Shown: positions 3,414-53,874 of the stretch, piece after piece | Layout of the letters: every line of letters begins with the position of its first letter | Numbering within the stretch: position 1 is the stretch's first letter | Assembly: GCF_037042905.1 (NCBI RefSeq) | Contig: NC_087251.1 | Span: 558,001 to 622,000 of the forward strand | Direction: 5' to 3' | Source: Lytechinus pictus | Taxonomy: Eukaryota | Length of the DNA stretch: 64,000 nt | Notes under the pieces: model-generated | Seen by the model: the letters and a program-made list of their open reading frames with translations, nothing else | What the model was told of the DNA's origin: nothing | Databases searched by the model: none | Program-made: the position numbers and the translations under genes

Positions 3414-5135
3414 CACTGTTGGTCATAAAGGTAGAATATTTTCTTTCACCAAATTTTCACAGCGTAATTATTACAACATGATTCGAATATGGCATTTATG
3501 GTGCATGATAACCACTTTACTTTATTATTCTGCCTTTTACACACGTTTGACAGTGATATTTTTCAAGTTTATGTCCTAAGCGATGGATGTCATGATCATA
3601 GAACAACAATGACGACAATATACAGTAAATTAAAGGATCATGAGATATTTAATTTCAATCTCTCTCAGTTTTCCAGATGACTTCTTTTTTGTGATGTCAT
3701 GGACAAATTTGCATCAAACTTGAGTCATTGTTCTTACTCAGTCACTAGTATCGGGTATGTCCACCCCTGGCACGAACCCGCACGAACCAGCGCATGCAGA
3801 CGTCGTGGCATGCTGTCCACTAGCTTGTTGATGACATCAACAGGCATAGCGTCCCATTCTTCCCTCAGAGCATCTGCCAACTCCTGCAGATTTTGGGGAA
3901 TGACCTCTCTGTCGTTGATGGCTCGGCCTAGGGCATCCCATGCATGCTCTATGGGGTTCATATCCGATGAACAAGCTGGCCATGGCTAGTGTCCCTGTAT
4001 AGAACACTAGCCATGGCAACTGTACGACGCCCTCTGCCTCCAGGAATTCCCTTACTGCAGCGGCCCTGTGTGGTCGATTAGCGTTAATTGTCATCCTGCA
4101 GTCGGAAATTGTGCCCATACACTCGTCTTGCATATGGAAGACAATGGAACTCCAAGATATATCCCTGTAGGCGGCGGCGTTGACGTTTCCGTCCGGAACG
4201 TACCACCAGTGGCGTTTTCCCTCCATATCGATGCCGGCCCATATCATCACTGAGCCGCCTCCGCCTTGAGTCATCTCGTGGATACATTCATCGCAAAGGT
4301 TTTCCCCGGCTAATCGACGAACTCGTTGTCTCCCATCCTTTCGGTCAAGGATGAACCGGCTCTCGTCCGTAAAGACCACATGTTGCCAATGTTCTGGATG
4401 AAGCCTTCTGTGCTCTCCCTAGCCCAAAGAAGACGAGCTACTCTGTGGAGAACAGACAGGCGTGGATATTTGGTCAACCGTCGTGCTCGGTAACCATGTT
4501 GGAGCAATCTGCGATTAACGGTTGACCGGGAAACGTTGATCCCATGATATCTCCTCCACAAGCGACGAAGACGGCTCGTGGGCAATTTCCGGTTTCTGCG
4601 GCTGAAATTCAACAGTTGGCGATCATCTCTTCTTGTGGTCAATCTGGGACGTCCTGGAGATTTCCGTGGCCGCACATTCCCCGCCTCACGTTGACGTTTC
4701 AGGGTCTTAGAGACTGCACTCTGTGATATATCCCTAGGACTTCTGCGATATCAGTCTGCTTGTTGCCCTCCTGTCGCAGTGCTACCACTCTCTCGCGTGT
4801 TGCTGTTGCCGTTGGACCAGGCATAGTCCAGGGAACGTCTCTACGGATTTTTATTTCAAACGCGGTACAAGGCCGGAACTCGAAAAAATGCAACCTTCTT
4901 ATATACAGTGCTAAATCAGGGAAAGGGACAGAATACCATATGCATAGGCTTTTATAGTCTACAACAAAAGAATTTATTACGTAATCCAAATTTCTCATGT
5001 TATGTCACCTGTGTAATGGGGAAACATTATGTAATCACTCAATTACCATTTTGTCTACGCGTAGCCTTTCAAATACCAACAAAACTGTCGATTTTTATTC
5101 AAAAATATTTTATTCCACCTTTATGACCAACAGTG
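3414..5135 (-). mobile_element. Full-length Tc1/mariner element with frameshifted transposase
   Basis: 25-bp TIRs CACTGTTGGTCATAAAGGT(A/G)GAATA, TA TSD. ORF pieces: SPGRPRLTTRRDDR (4310-4675), VFTDESRF...GGGSVMIWAGI (3837-4379), LQDDN, MNPIEHAWDAL (3734-3961). Confidence 0.95.
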
Positions 5136-14825: not shown

Positions 14826-16160
14826 AGTTGATGGCAGCCACTTTTTATTTGATGACGGTTACTTTTGACTTGATGACGGCCACTTTTTATTTGATGACGG
14901 TTACTTTTGACTTGATGACGGCCACTTTTTACTTGCTTTTTATTTGATGACGGTTACTTTTGACTTCATGACGGCCACTTTTGACTTGATGGCGGCTGCT
15001 TTTGATTCGATGATGGCTGCTTTTGATTTGATGATGGCTGCTTTTGATTCGATAGTGGCCACTTTTGATTTGATGATGGCTGCTTCTGATTTGATGATGG
15101 TTGCTTTTGATTCGATAGTGGCCACTTTTGAACTGATGATGCCCACTTTAGATTTGATGATGGTCACTTTCAATTTTTTTATCGCTTTTCATTTGATGGT
15201 CACTTTTTATTTGATCACTTAATTTGATGGTCACTTTTTATTTGATGGTCACTTTTTATTTGATGGTCACTTTTCATTTGATGGTCACTTTTCATTTGAT
15301 GGTCGCTTTTAATTTGATGGGCACCTTTTATTTGATGATCACTTATTTGATGGTCACTTTTAATTTGATGGTCACTTTTAATTTGATGGTCACTTTTAAT
15401 TTGATCATCAATTCTTATTTGATGGTCACTTTTAATTTGATGGTCGCTTTTTATTTAATGGTCACTTTTTATTTGATGGTCACTTTAAATTTGATGGTCA
15501 CTTTTTATTTGATGGTCATTTTTAATTTGATGCTCAGTTTTTATTTGATGGTCACTTTTAATTTGATGGTCGCTTTTTTGTTGCTCACTTTTTATTTGAT
15601 GGTCACTTTTAATTTGATGGTCACTTTTTATTTGATCATCACTTTTTATCTGATGGTCGCTTTTTATTTGATGGTCAATTTTTACTTGATGGTCGCTTTT
15701 AATTTGATGGGCACCTTTTATTTGATGATCACTTATTTGATGGTCACTTTTTATTTGATGGTCACTTTTTATTTGATCATCACTTTTTATCTGATCATCA
15801 CTTCTTTGACAGTCACTTTTTATTTGATGGTCACTTTTTATTTGATGCTCACTTTTCATTTGATGCTCACTTTTTATTTGATGGTCGCTTTTTATTTGAT
15901 GGTCACTTTTTATTTGATGGTCACTTTTAATTTGATGGTCACTTTTTTGTTGGTCACTTTTTATTTGATGGTCACTTCTTCTTTGATGGTCACTTTTCTT
16001 TTGATCGTCGCTTTTCATTTGATCATCACAATTTAAGTTGATGGTTTCGGCATTCCATACATGGTCGCTTTATAATATTTGATGGTCGCTTTTCATTTGA
16101 TCGTCGCTTTTATTTGATCGGCACTTTTCATTTGGTCGTCGCTTTATTTGATCATCACTT
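14826..16160 (+). repeat. 21-bp then 18-bp minisatellite arrays in the left arm (core TTTGATGGTCACTTTT)
   Basis: Directly visible tandem units. They produce the spurious (MVTFYL)n and (KSDHQI)n ORFs. Confidence 0.95.
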
Positions 16161-20821: not shown

Positions 20822-22050
20822 AGTGATGATCAAATGAAAAGCGACGACCAAATGAAAAGTGCCGATCAAATAAAAGCGACGATCAAATGAAAAGCGACCA
20901 TCAAATATAAAGCGACCATGTATGGAATGCCGAAACCATCAACTTAAATTGTGATGATCAAATGAAAAGCGACGATCAAAAGAAAAGTGACCATCAAAGA
21001 AGAAGTGACCATCAAATAAAAAGTGACCAACAAAAAAGTGACCATCAAATTAAAAGTGACCATCAAATAAAAAGTGACCATCAAATAAAAAGCGACCATC
21101 AAATAAAAAGTGAGCATCAAATGAAAAGTGAGCATCAAATAAAAAGTGACCATCAAATAAAAAGTGACTGTCAAAGAAGTGATGATCAGATAAAAAGTGA
21201 TGATCAAATAAAAAGTGACCATCAAATAAAAAGTGACCATCAAATAAGTGATCATCAAATAAAAGGTGCCCATCAAATTAAAAGCGACCATCAAGTAAAA
21301 ATTGACCATCAAATAAAAAGCGACCATCAAATTAAAAGTGACCATCAAATAAAAACTGAGCATCAAATTAAAAATGACCATCAAATAAAAAGTGACCATC
21401 AAATTTAAAGTGACCATCAAATAAAAAGTGACCATTAAATAAAAAGCGACCATCAAATTAAAAGTGACCATCAAATAAGAATTGATGATCAAATTAAAAG
21501 TGACCATCAAATTAAAAGTGACCATCAAATAAGTGATCATCAAATAAAAGGTGCCCATCAAATTAAAAGCGACCATCAAATGAAAAGTGACCATCAAATG
21601 AAAAGTGACCATCAAATAAAAAGTGACCATCAAATAAAAAGTGACCATCAAATTAAGTGATCAAATAAAAAGTGACCATCAAATGAAAAGCGATAAAAAA
21701 ATTGAAAGTGACCATCATCAAATCTAAAGTGGCCATCATCAGTTCAAAAGTGGCCACTATCGAATCAAAAGCAACCATCATCAAATCAGAAGCAGCCATC
21801 ATCAAATCAAAAGTGGCCACTATCGAATCAAAAGCAGCCATCATCAAATCAAAAGCAGCCATCATCGAATCAAAAGCAGCCGCCATCAAGTCAAAAGTGG
21901 CCGTCATGAAGTCAAAAGTAACCGTCATCAAATAAAAAGCAAGTAAAAAGTGGCCGTCATCAAGTCAAAAGTAACCGTCATCAAATAAAAAGTGGCCGTC
22001 ATCAAGTCAAAAGTAACCGTCATCAAATAAAAAGTGGCTGCCATCAACTT
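20822..22050 (-). repeat. Mirror copy of the 18/21-bp minisatellite in the right arm, ~105 bp shorter
   Basis: Reverse complement of 14826-16160. The ORF track shows 235 aa versus 270 aa for the mirrored repeat ORFs. Confidence 0.95.
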
Positions 22051-40934: not shown

Positions 40935-41876
40935 AGTGTAGTTTCGCACCTCCCCGTTTAATGGTTTTCAAACATGTACAATCTCATCCTAAATAATTCA
41001 CAACCTAAAATACTTGCATCTGGGCCTCCAAAGTCCAGTAGAAGTTGAATATTTGCCGTTTTGACACTTTTTTACAAAGTTTTAACGTTACACCTATTTC
41101 AGAATCACTCGGTCGCTTGATCAAGCTCAGCGCTGCACATAAGCAGTTGGTACGCGTACAGTACGTACCACCTAGTGAAGTGCAAAAAGAGCGAGTTTTT
41201 CTATGGTATCTTCAAAAAGATTTTTTCCCCTCTTTCAGCTTGCACCTAGTATTACGGTAGTGGTTTTTCACATTTCTTATTTCATTCAAACAAGCACACA
41301 CATGCACACCCCACACACACCTTCACACAACAAACATCAACCACTCTGCACAACCACTACCGTAATACTTGGTGCAAGCTGAAAGAGGGGAAAAAAATCT
41401 TTTTGAAGATACCATAGAAAAACTCGCTCTTCTTGCACTTCTTAAACTGGGCGTTGTGGCGTGCGCCTATAATCCAAGCTGTGTGGGGAAGTTACAAATT
41501 GATGCAGAGGTTCGGGGTTCGAGCCCTGGTCACGTCTTTCGGATGGTGACGTTAAAGGTCGGTCCCAGACGTAAATAATCATATCTGATTGATACACGTC
41601 TGACAAAACTCAAATACACACACTTCACTAGGTGGTACGTACCGGTACTGTACGCGTACCGACTGCTTCTGTGCAGCGCTGAGCTTCAAGCGACCGAGTG
41701 ATTCCGAAATAGGTGTAAAACTTTGTTTAAAAAAGTGTCAAAACGGCAAATATTCAACTTCTAGTCTACTGGACTTTGCTTTGGAGGCTCAGATGCAAGT
41801 ATTTAGGTTGTGAATTATTTAGGGTGAGATTGTACATGTTTGAAAACCATTAAACGGGGAGGTGCGAAACTACACT
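40935..41876. mobile_element. Fold-back MITE with ~330-bp arms, host of the 7SL-like SINE
   Basis: AGTGTAGTTTCGCACCTCCCCGTTTAATGG (40935) mirrors CCATTAAACGGGGAGGTGCGAAACTACACT (41876). Arms continue inward to about 41264 and 41352 around a CA-rich loop. Confidence 0.85.
41442..41620 (+). mobile_element. Chimeric SINE-like insertion with 7SL RNA/Alu-domain-like head, B box, Deu-domain-like body and (CA)n tail
   Basis: 41446-41480 ACTGGGCGTTGTGGCGTGCGCCTATAATCCAAGCT aligns 26/35 by hand to the human 7SL 5' end. B box GGTTCGAGCCC at 41516-41526. GTCTTTCGGATGGTGACGTTAAA from 41534. TSD CACTTC at 41436-41441 and 41621-41626. The insert is absent from the mirrored arm of the host MITE. Confidence 0.8.
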
Positions 41877-45480: not shown

Positions 45481-46178
45481 TGGTGAGTTCTGTGTTCTAT
45501 ATGCACGACTTTACCTGCAAAACGATTTGTTATGAAAAAATAAACTTAAGAATGATATATCCCAAATTGTACATTTATTATTTTCAAAACAAATGGATCC
45601 CTTCCATAGAATTAATGAATAGGGAAGTGACCAAAATCATTGTTTTCTTTCTCCTATTATTGTCCGGGGATATTGAATCAAACCCAGGCCCACAATTTAA
45701 GTTTCCATGTGGAAACTGCGAAAAACCAGTAATCAAATCAGTGCGGCCTTCTTTGTTCCACTTGTAAAAGATGGTAAGATATTCACTGTCAAGAAATACG
45801 CCTGGAAATATATTCAAATTTATATTTGAGCCCCGATGTCGAATGGTTTTGTTCAAACTGTTTTTACCATCTTTCTGTCAATCTTTATTTGACGACTACA
45901 ATAATACTATTGTAAACTGTGAGAAAGAAATTCGGGTACCCGAAAACATTCCAGAGCCAAATTTACAACAACAAAAATCGAAGGATTCAAGTTTACTTTA
46001 TCAAGATTTTGAAAACATATTTGCTGTAAAAGGTCTTCACTTTGTACATCTAAATGTTAGATCTATTCTACCAAAAAATTCAGAACTTCGAATTCTGTTT
46101 AAGAGAAAGAATCTTGCAGTCATTGCTTTCACAGAAACATGGCTAAATGACTCGGTGAATGATGAAGAAATCAATATA
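45481..46178 (+). pseudogene. LINE ORF2 5' part: SGDIESNPGP, PHD-like finger, start of the APE endonuclease
   Basis: LLLLSGDIESNPGPQFKFPCGNCEKPV; KGLHFVHLNVRSIL...IAFTETWL. Confidence 0.9.
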
Positions 46179-46382
46179 TAGACGGATCAATATATAGTTT
46201 GACCCGGAACAAATTGCAACAAATGATTTTCAACTGTTTCTGGCAGTATTTGACCTCAGGAAAAACATACTAAAAATCTACCAAAATCCGCACATGGGAA
46301 AGTGGTTATTTTCAAGATGGCGTCCAAGATAACCGCCATTCACTGAAAATGGATATAAGTCACTCATTATCCACCCTATAGA

Positions 46383-46920
46383 TTTTTATTTATTTATTTA
46401 TTTTGTTTTATTTATTTTATACTGCAGGGTAGGCCTGTTCAGTTCTTAAAACTGTTTTACAAAGGCGCCCTGCAGTTTAAAATACATGTCAAGATAACTA
46501 TGAACAACAACAACAAACAACATCAAAAATACAAAATACAAAATATCTAACATCAGAAACAATTAACACCAAAATATAGAGTGGGAAGTGACAATTTAAA
46601 CATACATAGCATTGTAAATCAATGGAATATCATTTCGCTCTTTATCAATTCGTATGAAAGGCTTTGCATAATTTTTTAAAAACTAACAAGGAGGTACAAA
46701 CTTGTAAATTTGAAGGAAGTGCATTAAATAATTTGGGTCCGACATATGCGAAAGATTTTCTTTTATGTTCAATTCTAGCTTTGGGAAGCTGAAGGGGGCA
46801 TCGTAAAGAATACCGTGTCCTGTATTTCACGGGCCGTTTACATACTAAAGGTTTTAAATAATTTGGAACTAAATCATTCATTATTTTATATACAAGAACA
46901 CAATACTGATATTTTATACG
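46383..46920 (-). pseudogene. 5'-truncated L2/CR1-group LINE 3' end nested in the fold-back arm
   Basis: ORF 46645-46881 (KSFAYVGPKLFNALP...FKK) is a typical ORF2 C-terminus; (TAAA)n-like tail at about 46383-46420. Confidence 0.8.
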
Positions 46921-47005
46921 CTAGAATCCTATTTGATTTCATATTCCATGGTACAGTGGGTAAACGAATTTGTTGAAACAAGTTAAAGTGAATATTAGCA
47001 ATCTA

Positions 47006-47237
47006 CACTCTAAATTACAGGGATTTAAAATAAGTCCAGATGGACTGTAGCTAGGGACCAATCGATTTCTGAATTTAGTTTTAATCCTAACGACTTAAAT
47101 TTAAATCTCAAATGATTTAAATTTAAATCTTTCGAGATTTAAAAATGAATCTTAAGGATTCAAACTAAATCCGGAATTCGATTGGTCCCTAACTACAGTC
47201 CATGTGGACTTGTTTTAAATCCCTGTAATTTAGAGTG
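47006..47237. mobile_element. Small palindromic CAC-ended MITE, TA flanks
   Basis: TA|CACTCTAAATTACAGGGATTTAAAA...TTTTAAATCCCTGTAATTTAGAGTG|TA. Confidence 0.85.
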
Positions 47238-49432
47238 TAGGGTACCAGAAAAATCCAAGATGGCGCCCCGCAAATGGCTGCTGTAGGCTAAAAAATCCTT
47301 ACCTACTTACTTAAGTGGCTTTAATTTGGTATCTTTTTAATGGTTTTACTGGCGAAGTAGTACATCGGGACAAGTTACAAGGATAGTCAGTGGTCTGGTG
47401 TGTCAAAAAATCCAAGATGGCTTCCAAAAATTGAGTTTAAAATGGCTGTTAATGCTTAAAATGGACATAGCTCATATCACATCCACCTGAGAGATATGAT
47501 TTTGGTGTCTAGACCATGGTTTCAATGGTCAAATAATACACTGGGATAAGTTACAAGGACAGTCAGTGGTCCGATATGTTAAAAAATGCAAGATGGCTTC
47601 CAAAAATGGAGTAAAAAAATGATGTTGCTACTTTAAAAAACAAACATAGTTTTTTCATTATCCGGGAATATGATTTTGTGCCTATAGGCTATACCAAGGT
47701 TAAATTGGTCAAATAATACATTGGGATAAGTTGCAAGGACGATGGGTGGTCAAGTATGTCCAAAAGTCCACGGTGGCTTTAAAAAATAGTATAAATTAGC
47801 CGCGCTGGTATTTACAAAATGGACAGAGTTCATGTAATATCCGTCAAGGGCATATGATATTTATGACTAATCCATGGTTTTAAAGTCAGAAAATTAGTTA
47901 CAATGACAGTCAGTTGACTAGTATGTCAAAAATCCTAGATGGCTTCCAAAAATCGGAATTTTAAAATCACCGCTTCTACTTTAAATAGACATACTTCATT
48001 TAAAATCCACCAAGGAAATATAATTTCGGTGTCCACACTATGGTTTCATGGTTAAAATAATACGTTTGGACTGGTTGCATTGATATGCAGTTGTCCATTT
48101 TGCCTAAATATCCAAGAGGGTTTTCAAAAAAGGCATCTGAAACGACTCATATCACTCAATAGTGGTAAGAGTTCTACAATATCTACATGTATCTGTATGA
48201 AATAATGTTGGTGTCTAAATTGTGGTAGGAAAGGTCAAATAATACATTCGAACAAGAAACAATGATGGTTACTATTCCATTTTGTCAATATGATAACTTA
48301 TCCCTATGTATTTAGGTGTAGGCACCAATATTATTTCTCACAAGTGGATATTGTAGGAACTAATATGTCCATTTTTAAGTAACAGCAGTCACTTTAGAAC
48401 CCATTTTTTTAAGCTAACTTGGATTTCAAGGCAAAATGGATAACTGCATATCATGGTAACCAGTCCCAAAGTATTCTTTGACCCTTGAAACCCTAGTGTA
48501 GAACAAAAATAATATCCCCAAGGTGTATTTGTAATGTTCTATATCCACTTTTAAGTAACAACAGTCATTTAAGACCCCAATTTTTAAAGCCATCTTCGAT
48601 TTTTGGACATACCTGACACATGACTGTCCTTTCAACTTAACCAAAATGTATTACTTAACCCTTTAAACTCTAGTGTAGACAGCAAAATCATACCTCCAAG
48701 ATGTATTTCTAATAAACTATGTATACTTTTAAGTAACAACAGTCAATTTACACCCCATTTTTTTAAAAGTCATCTTAGATTTTTTAACAAACACACATTT
48801 GACTGGTCTTGTAACTTACCCTAGTGTATTACCTGACCCTTTATACCAAGGTTTAGATATCAAATTCGTATTCCCCAGACAGATATTGAACAAACTATGT
48901 CCTTTTATAAGTAACATCATACATTTTTTACTCCATTTTTGGACGCCATCTTGTAATTGTGAACATACTAGACCACTGACTGTCATTGTAACTTGACCTA
49001 AATTATAATTTGACCCTTATAACCATAGTTTAGACACCGGAAATCATATATCACAGGCGGATATAAAATGAGCTATGCCATTTTTAAGTATCAGCAGCCA
49101 TTTTAGAATCAATTTTTGGAAGCCATATTTGATTTTTGGTCATACCAGGCCACCGACTGTCCTTGTAACTTGCCCAAATATATTAATTGATCCTTGAAAC
49201 CAGTGGTTTAGACACGGAAATCACATCTCCCAGGCCGATATGAAATGAGCTATGTCCGCTTTAAGTATTAGCAGCCATTTCAGAATCAATCTTTGGAATC
49301 CATCGGAGATTTTTGCATATACCAGACCACTGACTTTCCTTGTAACTTGTCTCAATGTAATATTTGACCACTTTAACCATGGTATAGATACAAAAATCAG
49401 ATTTCTGGATATTGAGTAATTTATGTCGGTTT

Positions 49433-50669
49433 TAGTCTCGCCTGCATAGCAGAGTGAGACTATAGGCGCCGCTTTTCCGACGGCGGCGGCGGCGTCAACA
49501 TCAAATCATAACCTAAGGTTAAGTTTTTGAAATGACATCATAACTTAGAAAGTATATGGACCTAGTTCATGAAACTTGGACATAAGGTTAATCAAGTATT
49601 ACTGAACATCCTTCTTGAGTTTCAGGTCACATGACCAAGGTCAAAGGTCATTTAGGGTCAATGAACTTAGACCATGTTGGGAAAATTATTTTCAAAATCT
49701 TAACCGAAGGTTAAGTTTTTGAAATGACATCATAACTTAGAAAGTATATGGACCTAGCTAGTTCATGAAACTTAGGCATAAGGTTGATCAAGTATTAGTG
49801 AACATCCTGCTCGAGTTTCAGGTCACGTGACCAAGGTCAAAGGTCATTTAGGGTCAATGAACTTTGGTCAAGTTGGGGGTATTTGTTGAATTACTATTAT
49901 AACTTTGAAAATTTTTGGATCTAGTCCATGAAATTTGGACATAAGGTTAATCAAGTATTAGTGAACATCCTGCCTGAGTTTCAGGTCACATGACCAAGGT
50001 CAAAGGTCATTTAGGGTCAATGAACTTTGGCCAAGTTGGGGGTATATGTTAAATTACCATCCTAGCTCTGAAAGTTTATGTATCTAGTTCATAAAACTTG
50101 GACATAAGAGTAATCAAGTATCACTGAACATCCCCTGTGAGTTTCAGGTCACAAAACCAAGTCAAAGGTCAGTTGAGGTCAATAAACTTAGGCCATGTTG
50201 GGGTAATTGTTGAAGTGCCATCATAACTTTGAAAGTTTAGTAGTAGTAGTAGTAGTATTTATTTCCGTATTAAAAAGCACAATTATATACAATAAAATAC
50301 GGTGGATAGCCCACATTCAGCGTGACTGGCACAGTAGCGCTGGTCTTCCGTGGGGTCCATAACATATAACATTAACGTATAATTTAGATACAATAAACCA
50401 CATTAGAATAACAGATGTACAGAAGATAAATGAAAATGTAAATAAATAAATAAAGTTTATGGATAGAGTGAATGAAATGTGGACATGGGTGTAGTTGACA
50501 GTCTTAAGTCTCCGTTCAAATGTCATATATGGTCAATGAACGTGGTATTATGTCATTATATGAATGATGTTTTTGTGAATGATTATTTTATAGTAGTTTT
50601 CAAAGTTAGCACTGCTGCTATATTAAATTGCGTAATGCAGGCGAGACTGCCAGAGGCGTTCCACATGTT
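49433..50669 (-). mobile_element. Helentron/HINE-like repeat, copy 4, containing a short LINE tail (~50240-50451)
   Basis: Reverse complement of the copy 2/6 structure. The inner insert has a (TAG)n tail and a probable TSD AAAGTTTA. Confidence 0.8.
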
Positions 50670-51352
50670 TTTAAGTAGCAACAGCAATTTTAGACTCCAT
50701 TTTTTAAGCTATCTTGGATTTTTGAACACACTGGACCACTGACTGTCCTTGCAATTTGTCCCAATGTCTTATTTGACCATTGACATCATTGTCTAGACAC
50801 CAAAATCATTATGTCCCAGGCGGATATAAAACGAACTATGTCCATTTTAATTATCAACAGCCATTCTAAACTCCCTTTTTGGAAGCCATCTTGGATTTTT
50901 GGACACACCAGACCACTGGCTGTCCTTGTAACTTGTTCCATTGTACTACTTCACCCATAAAACCATTGAATAAAAACCAAAATTAAAGCCACTTAGATGA
51001 ATTGTGGATTTTCAGTCTACGGCATCCATTTTGGGCGCCATTTTGGATTTTGCAGGTACACTGGAGGGCATATAATTCACTCTAGCCTGTATCAACAATG
51101 TTTGTACCCCCTAGACCATGAAATATGAACCGAAATAGGATCTAGGGTGGATAAAGTTTCAGTTGTATCCATATTTAGTGATGGCAGCCATCTTGGACGC
51201 CATCTTGAAAATAACCACTTTCCCGGATGCGGATTTTGGTAGATTTTTAATATGTTGTTCCAGAGGTAAAATAGTACAAAACACCCTTGAAAAATCATTT
51301 GTTGCAATTTGTTCCGGGTAAGGGTATTTTTGGTCGTATATTGACCCGTCTA

Positions 51353-53874
51353 TATTCGAGAAAGAAATGTGGCGTATAAAAAATGAAGAAAAATCTAAGC
51401 GATGAGGATTATGACACGCTTTCCAAAAGATACAAGAAATTAAGAAATATGGTTCAAAGAGAGGTGAAAAAGGCCAAATTAGAATACCTACAAAATAAAA
51501 TAGAAGAAAATAAAAATTATTCTAAAAGACTTTGGCAGAATCTAAAAAGTTTGGGATTAAAAAAGAAAAATGGAAAGGACCAAGAATTAGTCGTTTCAAT
51601 TGACGGAAAATTATGTCATGATAAGATATTTCCTATGAATTCAATTCCTATTTCAAATGTCGCAGCTACGTTGGTAGATAAACTTCCATCTTGCAAAGAC
51701 ATTTTCAGTGCAGACAGTGAGAACATTCGTGAATTTTATGAAAAAAAAGGTATAAGCCAAGATAAATTTGAATTATTACCCGTTAGTGATCAATTCATTT
51801 TTAATGAGTTGCGTAAATTAAATGTATCAAAAAGCACTGGGTTAGATTTGATCCCTGCTAAATTTCTAAAAGAAGGAGCAAAGAATTTGTACAAACCATT
51901 AAATTTCTTGATAAATCTATCTATCTTTACTAGCACTTTCCCAGAGGATATGAAAATTGCCAAAGTAACTCCTATTCATAAGAAGAAAGATAAAACTGCT
52001 GTTGAAAACTATAGACCTACCAGTGTTTTAAGCATAGTATCCAAAATTCTAGAAAAGGCGGTATGTGTTTAGATCGAAAAATATTTTAAAGAAAATGATA
52101 TGATTTACGAATATCAGTCTGGTTTTCGACATGACTATTCGACTGAGACATGCCTTATTCACTTGACTGATTATCTGAGAACTAATACTTCTAAGGGACA
52201 ATTCGTTGGGATGGTACTCCTAGATCTTCAAAAAGCATTTGATACAGTTAATCATGGCATCTTATTGAAAAAATTGCAAATAATGGGTTTTAACCAGGCT
52301 ACTGTAGCATGGTTCGAATCCTACTTGTCGAATCGACATCAAGTAGTGGCTATTCGCGATATTCGTTCCAAAATTATGCCTATAACGTGTGGAGTTCCAC
52401 AGGGAAGTATTTTAGGCCCAATTCTATTTTCAACTCATATCAATGACATGTCTATTTGTATAAAAGCTGACTGTAAATTATTATTGTATGCAGATGATAG
52501 CGTACTACTTTGTTCAAATTCCAACCCAAAATTTGTTGAGGAAACACTTAGCGAACAGCTGTCTACATGTGTCGATTGGATGACTGATAATAGATTACAC
52601 TTAGGCAAAACCGAGAGCATTGTGTTTTGTTCTAAAAGTAATTATAAAACTTCATTTGAATTTGAAGTATCATACAATAATAAGACAATTCAGAGGAAAG
52701 AATCTGTAAAGTATTTAGGCATTGAGTTGACTAGCTCCCTTTCATTTTCATCTTTAGTAGAATCAATCGTGAACAAGGCGAATGCCTGTTTGAAATTTCT
52801 GTACAGGTATCAAAGTTGTATGGATCAAAAAGCAAGGCGTATTCTCTGTTTTGCTCTTATATAGAGTTTATTTGACTATGCTAACCCTGCTTGGTTTAGT
52901 GGAATAAGCGAACTCGATAAAAAGAAGTTGAAAATGAAACAGAATAAAATGGTTAGACCCATTAACTGTTCTGGTCCCAGAACCCATGTTGGCTACACCG
53001 AACTCTCTGGAGCAGGTTTTCTTGAAGTCAACAAAAGATCAAAACAGCTTATTTTGCACCACGTGCATAAAATCTATCACAATAGATCGAATCATTACAT
53101 TGGATCAAACTTTAATCTAGTTACCGAATTACATAACTATACAAGAAACAGCCATTTCAACTTTTGCTTACCAGAAAGGGTAGGTATAGTATTGGTAACT
53201 CCTTTTATTACAATGCTATAAAACATTGGAATTCCCTTCCCAATGATATAAAGGAAATAGGAAACTTTTCGCATTTTAAGAGGAAATTGAAAGAATATCT
53301 TTCACTTGAGAGTCAAAGAGAAGATGCAAATGTATGTTATACGGTTGATTTAGCATGAATACAGACCACGTTCTTTTCTCTTCTCTACCAGGAATTATTA
53401 TTTAGTTTACATAGTTTGATTGAAGCTTCGATATTTCCTTTCTTCTATTCTTTCTATTTCTTTTATCTCTTCCTTCTATTCTCCTCTTCGTGTTGTTATT
53501 GTTGTCGCCGTTTTTGCCGTTGTTCTTCTTCTTATTTTTCTTCCTCCTCCTTTTCTTCCGTCTCCTTCTCCTTCTTCTCCCCTTTCTTCTATTCCTCCTC
53601 CTTCTTTTCTTCTTCTTCTTCGTTATATTCTTGTATATATTATCTATATATCTTATTTATTGGTAATAGTAAATTCTGATTTTTTTTCTTCATTTTTTAA
53701 ATATGTAAATAGTATAATTTTACCATTTTATTATCTTAATTCTGTATGTCGAGGACCCCACTGGAAACAAGCTTTCGAGCTTTCGTGGGTCATCATGTGC
53801 AAGCCTGTTGTTTTAATGCTACTGTATTATAAATTATGTTATGGTGACTTGCCAAATAAAATCAATCAATCAAT
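51353..53874 (+). pseudogene. LINE (CR1/L2 group) reverse transcriptase and 3' UTR
   Basis: NYRPTSVL, QSGFR, LDLQKAFDTVNH, GVPQGSILGP, YADD and KYLG, broken by stops and frameshifts. 3' end AATAAA(ATCA)n at 53855-53874. Confidence 0.95.

Follow-up and report, generated by a model that had tools for sequence, protein, structure and literature searches.

A young composite short interspersed element with a 7SL RNA-like head in the Lytechinus pictus (sea urchin) genome

A 64,000-nucleotide stretch of the Lytechinus pictus genome (contig NC_087251.1, positions 558,001 to 622,000; hereafter the window), which lies on contig 7 of the 811.7-Mb assembly that was searched, carries at positions 41442-41620 a short interspersed element (SINE) whose 5′ end resembles the Alu domain of signal-recognition-particle (SRP) RNA, or 7SL RNA. 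We conclude that this element very probably belongs to a young SINE family of composite build, with a head that comes from the 7SL RNA of the host itself, and that the family originated and spreads broadly as proposed below. Read from 5′ to 3′, its modules would be a 47-nt piece of 7SL RNA, a linker, a tRNA-type B box, a core of the Deu/Nin type, a hairpin, and a (CA)n end. In a Pfam search for bindin, a sperm protein of echinoderms, this genome scored 236.7 bits and 0 of 14 control genomes gave a match, which points to an echinoderm host, most likely a sea urchin; runs labelled sea urchin and echinoderm also contain part of the element.

The limits of the element are set by its insertion site. 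The host of the insert is a long inverted repeat, or foldback, with arms at 40935-41270 and 41347-41876 that form ten inverted-repeat pairs of 88-100% complementarity. Because the right arm is split in two, with its first part stopping at 41441 and its second beginning at 41621, and because CACTTC stands on both sides of the break, we define the insert as the 179-nt retroposon at 41442-41620, flanked by a 6-bp target-site duplication (TSD). The left arm crosses GAAGTG at 41177-41182 without interruption and thus provides an empty-site control for the window copy, and a contig from another organism's run (X11) that fuses the left flank straight to 41621 represents a further unfilled copy. An initial annotation, made from the letters of the window, had proposed a 179-bp insert bounded by CACTTC, an empty site within the window, and a (CA)n tail. 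The split right arm and the continuous left arm bear out the first two of these proposals, and the tail is likewise present, with 2-3 units in the window copy (...ATACACA) and up to about 12 in other copies. The features of the element and its host, in window coordinates, are listed here.

41436-41441, + strand: left TSD, CACTTC; the first right-arm piece ends at 41441, and the hexamer occurs once in the left arm, in reverse complement, at 41177-41182.
41442-41445, + strand: four extra 5′ bases, TTAA, before the 7SL-like position +1; several copies have T(T)AA before ACTGGG and others have none.
41446-41492, + strand: putative 7SL-derived head of 47 nt, corresponding to the SRP Alu 5′ domain (helices 2, 3, and 4 plus the U-turn motif, here UAUAA).
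41493-41508, + strand: linker of 16 nt between head and B box, with no match to the rest of 7SL.
41509-41528, + strand: B-box region, with a canonical tRNA-type B box at 41516-41526 and a 7-nt duplicate, GGTTCGG, before it.
41529-41566, + strand: short core of the Deu or Nin-DC type, resembling the Deu rows of BivaMD-SINE1; echinoderm contigs match exactly from 41529.
41566-41602, + strand: 3′ hairpin with a 7-bp outer stem (CAGACGU/ACGUCUG) and an inner stem; the matches from other runs end at 41602.
41603-41620, + strand: A-rich end and short (CA)n tail, the (CA)n length depending on the copy.
41621-41626, + strand: right TSD, CACTTC; the next right-arm piece starts at 41621.
40935-41876, no strand assigned: host foldback, an inverted repeat resembling a miniature inverted-repeat transposable element (MITE), with its ten inverted-repeat pairs.

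The TTAA bases could have arisen in either of two ways: the source transcript may begin a few bases early, or the bases may be untemplated. A second copy of the foldback, on contig 1 (L061:1330-1680, corresponding to 41360-41700 of the window), has a SINE in the identical place. The two SINEs are unlike at several subfamily positions (the contig-1 SINE is without the 7-nt duplicate and reads UGUAA), and 6 bases are absent at the 5′ junction of the contig-1 SINE. Either a preferred target (CAC beside the tail repeat) was struck twice, or an old insertion was duplicated together with its host.

The evidence that the head is related to 7SL RNA comes from covariance models and from the 7SL genes of the host. 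For the window copy, the best Rfam match is Metazoa_SRP, at 25.2 bits and an E value of 6.9e-5, and the alignment covers helices 2, 3, and 4 with high posterior probability. The same family is the best match in all four copies scanned, the three further copies scoring 30-34.9 bits. Each of the three helices is recovered in the Infernal alignments, helix 3 containing one pair that is not standard. Both the 7SL-like head and the preserved Alu 5′-domain fold described in the initial annotation are therefore substantiated. The only other recurrent Rfam match among the SINE copies is mir-1268, an Alu-derived family.

The assembly contains seven full-length 7SL genes (272-283 bits), three on contig 10 (C10), three on contig 1 (C1), and one on contig 12 (C12), and a similar upstream motif is common to all seven. 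SINE heads are identical to the C12 paralog at 31 of 31 positions and at 42 of 46 over the whole head, and to the other host paralogs at 38 of 40. For the head of the window copy, the corresponding values are 32 of 35 positions with the C10 and C1 paralogs and 42 of 48 alignment columns with C12. The SINE head and the C12 gene also have in common the helix-2 pair variant ACU...AGU, in place of the ACC...GGU of the other six genes, which indicates that a paired change was carried over intact. Judged by these identities, the source of the head is the host's own 7SL RNA, and C12 is the paralog closest to the head. The similarity to 7SL ends immediately after the 3′ strand of helix 2, and the bases that follow match no part of 7SL. 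When a full copy was compared by blastn-short with two host 7SL genes, only head nucleotides 1-31 were matched and the 3′ part of 7SL was not found, the remaining matches being 7-8 nt long with E above 1.

One alternative is that the element is an ordinary tRNA-derived SINE of the Deu type (SINE2), and that its likeness to 7SL is due to chance or to convergence on an A box for RNA polymerase III (Pol III). Such an origin would fit the canonical B box, the tRNA heads of known sea urchin DeuSINEs (PMC3747384), and the occurrence of related modules behind tRNA-like sequence in other runs. However, chance or convergence is opposed by the 31-nt identity to a host 7SL paralog and by covariance-model scores of 25-35 bits for the structure of the SRP Alu 5′ domain. 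In addition, no tRNA or 5S match was returned by Rfam at E up to 10 for the four copies scanned, and ARAGORN found no tRNA in the window. A SINE2 head has both an A and a B box, whereas this element has the B box only, with 7SL sequence at the A-box position. We therefore regard a tRNA origin of the head as very remote, and the prospect raised at the outset that a tRNA or 5S derivation might score better than 7SL has not materialized.

The initial annotation also cautioned that the conserved U-turn reads UAUAA. This holds for the window copy but is not a trait of the family, whose consensus keeps UGUAAU; UAUAA occurs at 8 exact places only. Three of these (the window, L002, and L003) are 99% alike, which suggests that the change marks a very small subfamily.

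That the element belongs to a repeat family is clear from its copy number. The 30-mer spanning the head/body junction occurs at 1417 places and a 27-mer from the head at 1307 (at most 2 mismatches each), and a degenerate Deu motif occurs at 1122, with 0 places for the reversed control in every case. A DNA search that began with 1544 first-look candidates yielded 46 scored matches, at identities of 90-100%, which are spread over many contigs and lie on either strand. The repeated unit is 165-190 nt long, is mostly not in tandem, and is found on all large contigs in both orientations, as the SINEBase definition (PMC3531059) expects of a short (<1 kb) interspersed repeat. The 30 Deu-motif places that come first on contig 1 comprise 24 with the 7SL head (one of them split by an unrelated MITE), one with a partial head, three truncated at the 5′ end, and two that are diverged with other upstream sequence.

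The family is young. Substitutions from the consensus average 1.7% (range 0-4.8%) in a positional sample of 23 full copies, which is biased to young copies because an intact 21-nt motif was required. The 7-nt duplicate ahead of the B box, which the window copy has, is present in 6 of these 23 copies and absent from 17. Exact flanking repeats, all different from one another, measure at least 5 bp in 19 of 48 copies and at least 6 bp in 13 of 48. With 1417 junction places and TSDs that differ between copies, the element cannot be single-copy, an outcome that would have undone the initial proposal.

It could be argued that these copies are chimeric 7SL retropseudogenes, generated by template switching onto the transcript of another SINE or LINE (long interspersed element) and forming no self-propagating family. 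Template switching is the usual route to chimeras (PMC7245038), and the founder of the family probably arose in this manner. Many independent switches, however, would be expected to yield differing junctions. Instead, a fixed 47-nt piece of 7SL is joined at the single junction seen at 1417 places, the junction is identical in 43 of 43 aligned copies, and subfamilies with common diagnostic changes are present among the aligned copies. A collection of separate retropseudogenes is thus a highly improbable explanation, and we interpret the copies as descendants of one 7SL-headed founder.

Some copies have unusual arrangements. Tandem arrays of 2-4 SINE units joined via their tails occur at L021 (contig 19, about 10865247-10865951), L029, L028, and L039. 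On contig 15 (24317224-24326797), a five-fold repeat with a 2385-bp period includes a truncated SINE copy.

The remainder of the element resembles the body of a Deu-type SINE. The B box foreseen in the initial annotation is present as a canonical tRNA-type sequence (GGTTCGAGCCC), and its Deu-like segment is likewise recovered. Compared by eye over about 42 unscored columns, 41529-41566 and the Deu-domain rows for BivaMD-SINE1 (PMC4824008, supplementary file 2) have four blocks in common, in unchanged order: GTCACG, TCTTTCGGATG (an exact run of 11 nt), TTAAA, and GGTCCC. By this comparison the element has the central Deu or short Nin-DC part that characterizes DeuSINEs, although the Deu-like stretch is only about 38 nt long, a short Nin-type part, and the vertebrate domain measures 330 nt. 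Downstream of the core, 41566-41602 forms a two-step hairpin in both the minimum-free-energy and centroid structures, and this predicted hairpin is the presumed recognition element for the reverse transcriptase of a partner LINE. The SINE unit contains no T4 run.

Contigs of four other runs (X10, X11, X15, and X16) that were aligned to the SINE site provide a view of the history of this body. The junction between 7SL and linker is spanned by contigs of X10 (organism B) and X11 (organism C) and by one contig of X16, an RNA library labelled echinoderm. Many more contigs of X10, X15, and X16 match 41529-41602 only and have different sequence 5′ of 41529; in 7 contigs of X10 and 12 of X16, a tRNA-like B-box sequence lies directly 5′ of 41529. 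Past 41602, these module-only contigs run on into tail sequences other than that of the window copy. Given contigs that match this module alone, in X10 and X16 also behind a tRNA-like B box, we infer that the core and hairpin constitute an older and more widespread module that also occurs behind tRNA-type heads, in agreement with the initial proposal that a 7SL head was grafted onto a Deu-type SINE. An older module of this kind fits the known sea urchin DeuSINE SINE2-3_SP, which has a tRNA head and the CR1-type partner CR1Y_SP (PMC3747384).

Several candidates for other forms of the family in this genome were set aside. A pattern forbidding the usual pre-core bases found 49 places, and among the 5 inspected as possible tRNA-headed sisters, three are 7SL-headed with small insertions, one is truncated, and one has unrecognizable upstream sequence. 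L082 and L084, considered as copies with an alternative head, are diverged, with no recognizable head and no long open reading frame upstream. L072 was considered as a longer ancestral form, but the 167 extra bases that it has between B box and core turned out to be an independent MITE bounded by inverted ends. This MITE (L072:1331-1497 and L090-L097) belongs to a 165-bp family with terminal inverted repeats of about 18 nt, 81-85% identity, and hundreds of copies.

We propose the following route for the propagation of the family. Source copies would be transcribed by Pol III from an internal promoter composed of the 7SL A-box region and the tRNA-type B box located about 50-60 nt downstream. 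The 47-nt 5′ domain of the transcript would fold like the SRP Alu 5′ domain and bind SRP9/14, which in turn would bring the SINE RNA to ribosomes translating the partner LINE. There, the 3′ hairpin and (CA)n end would be recognized by a reverse transcriptase of the stringent type, and target-primed reverse transcription would leave short, variable TSDs. If the known sea urchin DeuSINE is a guide, a partner from the CR1 group is probable. As to origin, a 7SL 5′ piece may have taken the place of the A-box half in the head of an earlier Deu-type SINE, or it may have been fused to a B-box-bearing sequence; an earlier DeuSINE head swap, from tRNA to 5S, has been described (PMC4758252). This fusion would be independent of the vertebrate 7SL SINEs, because the head bears the 7SL bases of the host lineage, including the 31-nt identity to a host paralog, and the further independent origin suggested in the initial annotation gains direct support on the same grounds.

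The part assigned to SRP9/14 deserves separate consideration. One possibility is that the SINE is truly 7SL-headed, but that the 7SL piece contributes only the A-box half of a Pol III promoter, with SRP9/14 playing no part and the 3′ hairpin alone securing reverse transcription by a stringent LINE. The A box of human 7SL, at positions 6-15, lies within the retained piece, and non-L1 LINEs recognize 3′ structures (both PMC7245038). Likewise, the G of the U-turn is missing from a few copies that are nearly identical to one another, and folding statistics lend the structure no support. On the other hand, the retained piece is not confined to the A-box region: it is a complete 5′ domain that ends exactly where helix 2 closes, its paired helix-2 variant is intact, and the UGUAAU consensus is kept in about 1300 copies. 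Its 47 nt also come close to the 46-nt minimal 5′ Alu domain that associates with SRP9/14 and is needed for Alu retrotransposition in human cells (PMC11760393). We consider a promoter-only role possible though unlikely, and favor a head that would serve both in transcription and in SRP9/14 binding.

A second question is whether the fusion occurred at a 7SL locus. In six of the seven host 7SL genes, a conserved hairpin that resembles a T-arm and contains a tRNA-type B box lies 3′ of the terminator, with a further run of T beyond it; both are absent at the C12 gene. This trailer could be a downstream TFIIIC site or the remnant of an old tRNA-like element. At L031-L036 it lies 10-70 nt past the T run of the gene, and it is kept even where other flanks differ. 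We also observed that a copy of an older SINE subfamily, with 79-89% identity to the element of the window, lies upstream of each of the three tandem 7SL genes on contig 10, its end about 35-40 bp away from the gene (L031:875-1044, L031:1288-1457, L035:1292-1461, and L036:1313-1461), where it adjoins the conserved upstream motif.

The SINE linker is weakly similar in sequence to the trailer of the host 7SL genes, and a shared origin of the two is a speculative notion. If it were correct, the founder might have been born at a 7SL locus, where an internal deletion joined the 5′ domain to the B-box trailer, and the Deu core and tail would have been acquired later. Apart from the trailer itself, this scenario is favored by an alignment of the SINE linker and B-box region with the C10 trailer at 26 of 33 columns, whose score was reached by 0 of 2000 shuffles for L035 and 13 of 2000 for L031. 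However, mononucleotide shuffles are a lenient control, and a generic B box supplies much of the score. Copies that do not have the 7-nt duplicate align over the B box only, with 23-96 of 2000 shuffles reaching the score, and C12, the paralog nearest to the head, is the one that does not have such a trailer. Birth at a 7SL locus is thus distinctly unlikely, and we prefer the joining of a 7SL piece to an older Deu-type SINE or other B-box-bearing sequence.

Several observations weigh against our interpretation of the element as a 7SL-headed SINE family that works and arose as proposed. No exact flanking repeat of at least 5 bp was found for 29 of the 48 copies, in part because CA-rich target sites merge with the tail. 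The folding energy of the whole element is not significant (z = -1.36), heads alone give z of about 0, and helix 2 is missing from the minimum-energy fold of the heads. Because three near-identical copies (the window, L002, and L003) read UAUAA rather than UGUAA, spread may not depend on an intact U-turn. The stretch shared with 7SL amounts to only 46-48 nt, at 91-100% identity, and so falls below the 60 nt asked for in the SINEBase definition, which makes exceptions where Pol III transcription is shown (PMC3531059). A tRNA-headed sister with the same core was not found in this genome, either in the Deu-motif sample or with the exclusion pattern described above. RNA-library contigs cover parts of the element, but this shows presence in the library rather than transcription. 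Finally, the partner LINE was not found: two patterns for tails without the SINE gave 8 and 5 places, nearly all of them SINE copies shifted by insertions or deletions.

No tail-only match was present in the 250 kb of loci examined. L041, which had appeared to be a tail behind foreign sequence, is a 5′-truncated copy abutting the end of another repeat family whose members are 95-97% identical. In the window itself, 45768-52864 (+ strand) contains open frames resembling a LINE endonuclease and reverse transcriptase, which were rejected as the partner on finding no related 3′ end. Elsewhere in the window, an open frame at 3837-4750 (- strand) resembles a remnant of a Tc1/mariner-type transposase, and 15215-16069 and 20911-21660 are inverted copies of a long repeat in which the open frames of both strands consist of a short periodic peptide motif.

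To place the family among known elements, we compared it with published 7SL-derived and Deu-type SINEs. The initial annotation held 7SL-derived SINEs to be rare, naming those of Euarchontoglires and hagfish. Supraprimates and hagfish are confirmed as sources by a paper of February 2026, which adds only its own new shrew-mole family; independent births of such SINEs are regarded as extremely rare, and all described families keep the 5′ and 3′ ends of 7SL after a central deletion (PMC13023118). The sea urchin family has the 5′ part derived from 7SL that is typical of SINE1 elements, together with the 5′-domain fold and the UGUAAU motif, but it does not combine 5′ and 3′ ends of 7SL. Because this architecture and the 60-nt overlap of SINEBase are both lacking, we set the family apart from a plain member of SINE1.

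No report of a 7SL-derived SINE in an echinoderm or other invertebrate was found in the literature searched, a search that left out Repbase, Dfam, SINEBase, and the transposable-element supplements of genome papers. A literature search with a 19-nt string from the head gave no match, and two other motifs gave only coincidences of the primer type. Prior cataloguing, which the initial annotation named as a refuting outcome, was thus not encountered as far as this literature goes, although the family may be on record elsewhere by a different name. It is quite possible, but we claim it only tentatively, that this is the first 7SL-derived SINE lineage of an invertebrate, the fourth independent birth after those in supraprimates, hagfish, and the shrew mole, and the first to keep only the 47-nt 5′ Alu domain.

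The presence of an abundant young family in a sea urchin would carry the origin of 7SL SINEs beyond vertebrates. It would also differ from the known families in combining the 5′ Alu domain alone with a B box of the tRNA type and with the kind of 3′ hairpin that SINEs mobilized by stringent LINEs typically have. The family thus bears on the question of what portion of the Alu domain promotes the spread of a SINE, and on whether this help depends on L1. If this tentative reading is correct, nature has run the minimal-domain experiment with a non-L1, hairpin-recognizing LINE as the partner, which would argue for ribosome docking via SRP9/14 as a general aid to SINE spread rather than a peculiarity of L1. 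Embryos of sea urchins can readily be injected and population data exist for these animals, so activity, Pol III transcription, and dependence on SRP9/14 are open to testing.

DeuSINEs of the SINE3 and AmnSINE1 type have a 5S rRNA head and are found in vertebrates. In these elements, as in the sea urchin family, another Pol III RNA was fused before the tRNA head of a Deu-type SINE and took over its role (PMC4758252); the newcomer was 5S rRNA in vertebrates, whereas in the echinoderm it would be 7SL RNA. SINE2-3_SP of Strongylocentrotus purpuratus is, like the family described here, a sea urchin SINE with a Deu/Nin core (PMC4824008, PMC3747384). Compared by description only, it differs in its tRNA head and in its partner CR1Y_SP (PMC3747384), and it is a probable relative of the element that donated the core and hairpin module.

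Alu, B1, and Urop of the shrew mole resemble the sea urchin family in having a head from the Alu domain of the host 7SL RNA, with the U-turn motif and helices 3 and 4, and SRP9/14 binding is the role expected, by analogy, for all of them (PMC13023118). Unlike the sea urchin family, they consist of 7SL sequence only, with 5′ and 3′ ends joined after a deletion of about 183 nt (PMC13023118), and they end in poly(A) and use L1, in contrast to the (CA)n end, tRNA-type B box, and Deu core seen here. The tree-shrew elements Tu type I/II and the bushbaby element GarnAlu are also chimeras of 7SL-derived and tRNA-derived parts, but in these cases whole SINE monomers descended from a single supraprimate 7SL SINE were fused (PMC7245038), whereas in the sea urchin a 47-nt 7SL piece replaces part of the head within one monomer.

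Another similar case is SINE1-1_EBu of the hagfish Eptatretus burgeri, in which a 7SL head is fused to parts of older SINEs or non-autonomous LINEs (PMC7245038). Like the sea urchin family, SINE1-1_EBu is young, numbers a few thousand copies, and originated independently of Alu and B1; its mobilization by a non-L1 LINE via a specific 3′ region and a microsatellite-type tail (PMC7245038) would also be shared by the sea urchin family. However, in SINE1-1_EBu a central deletion has left the 5′ region as well as the 3′ region of 7SL in place, and the body is RTE-derived, in a vertebrate host, whereas the sea urchin family has the first 47 nt only, joined to a core of the Deu/Nin type in an invertebrate deuterostome.

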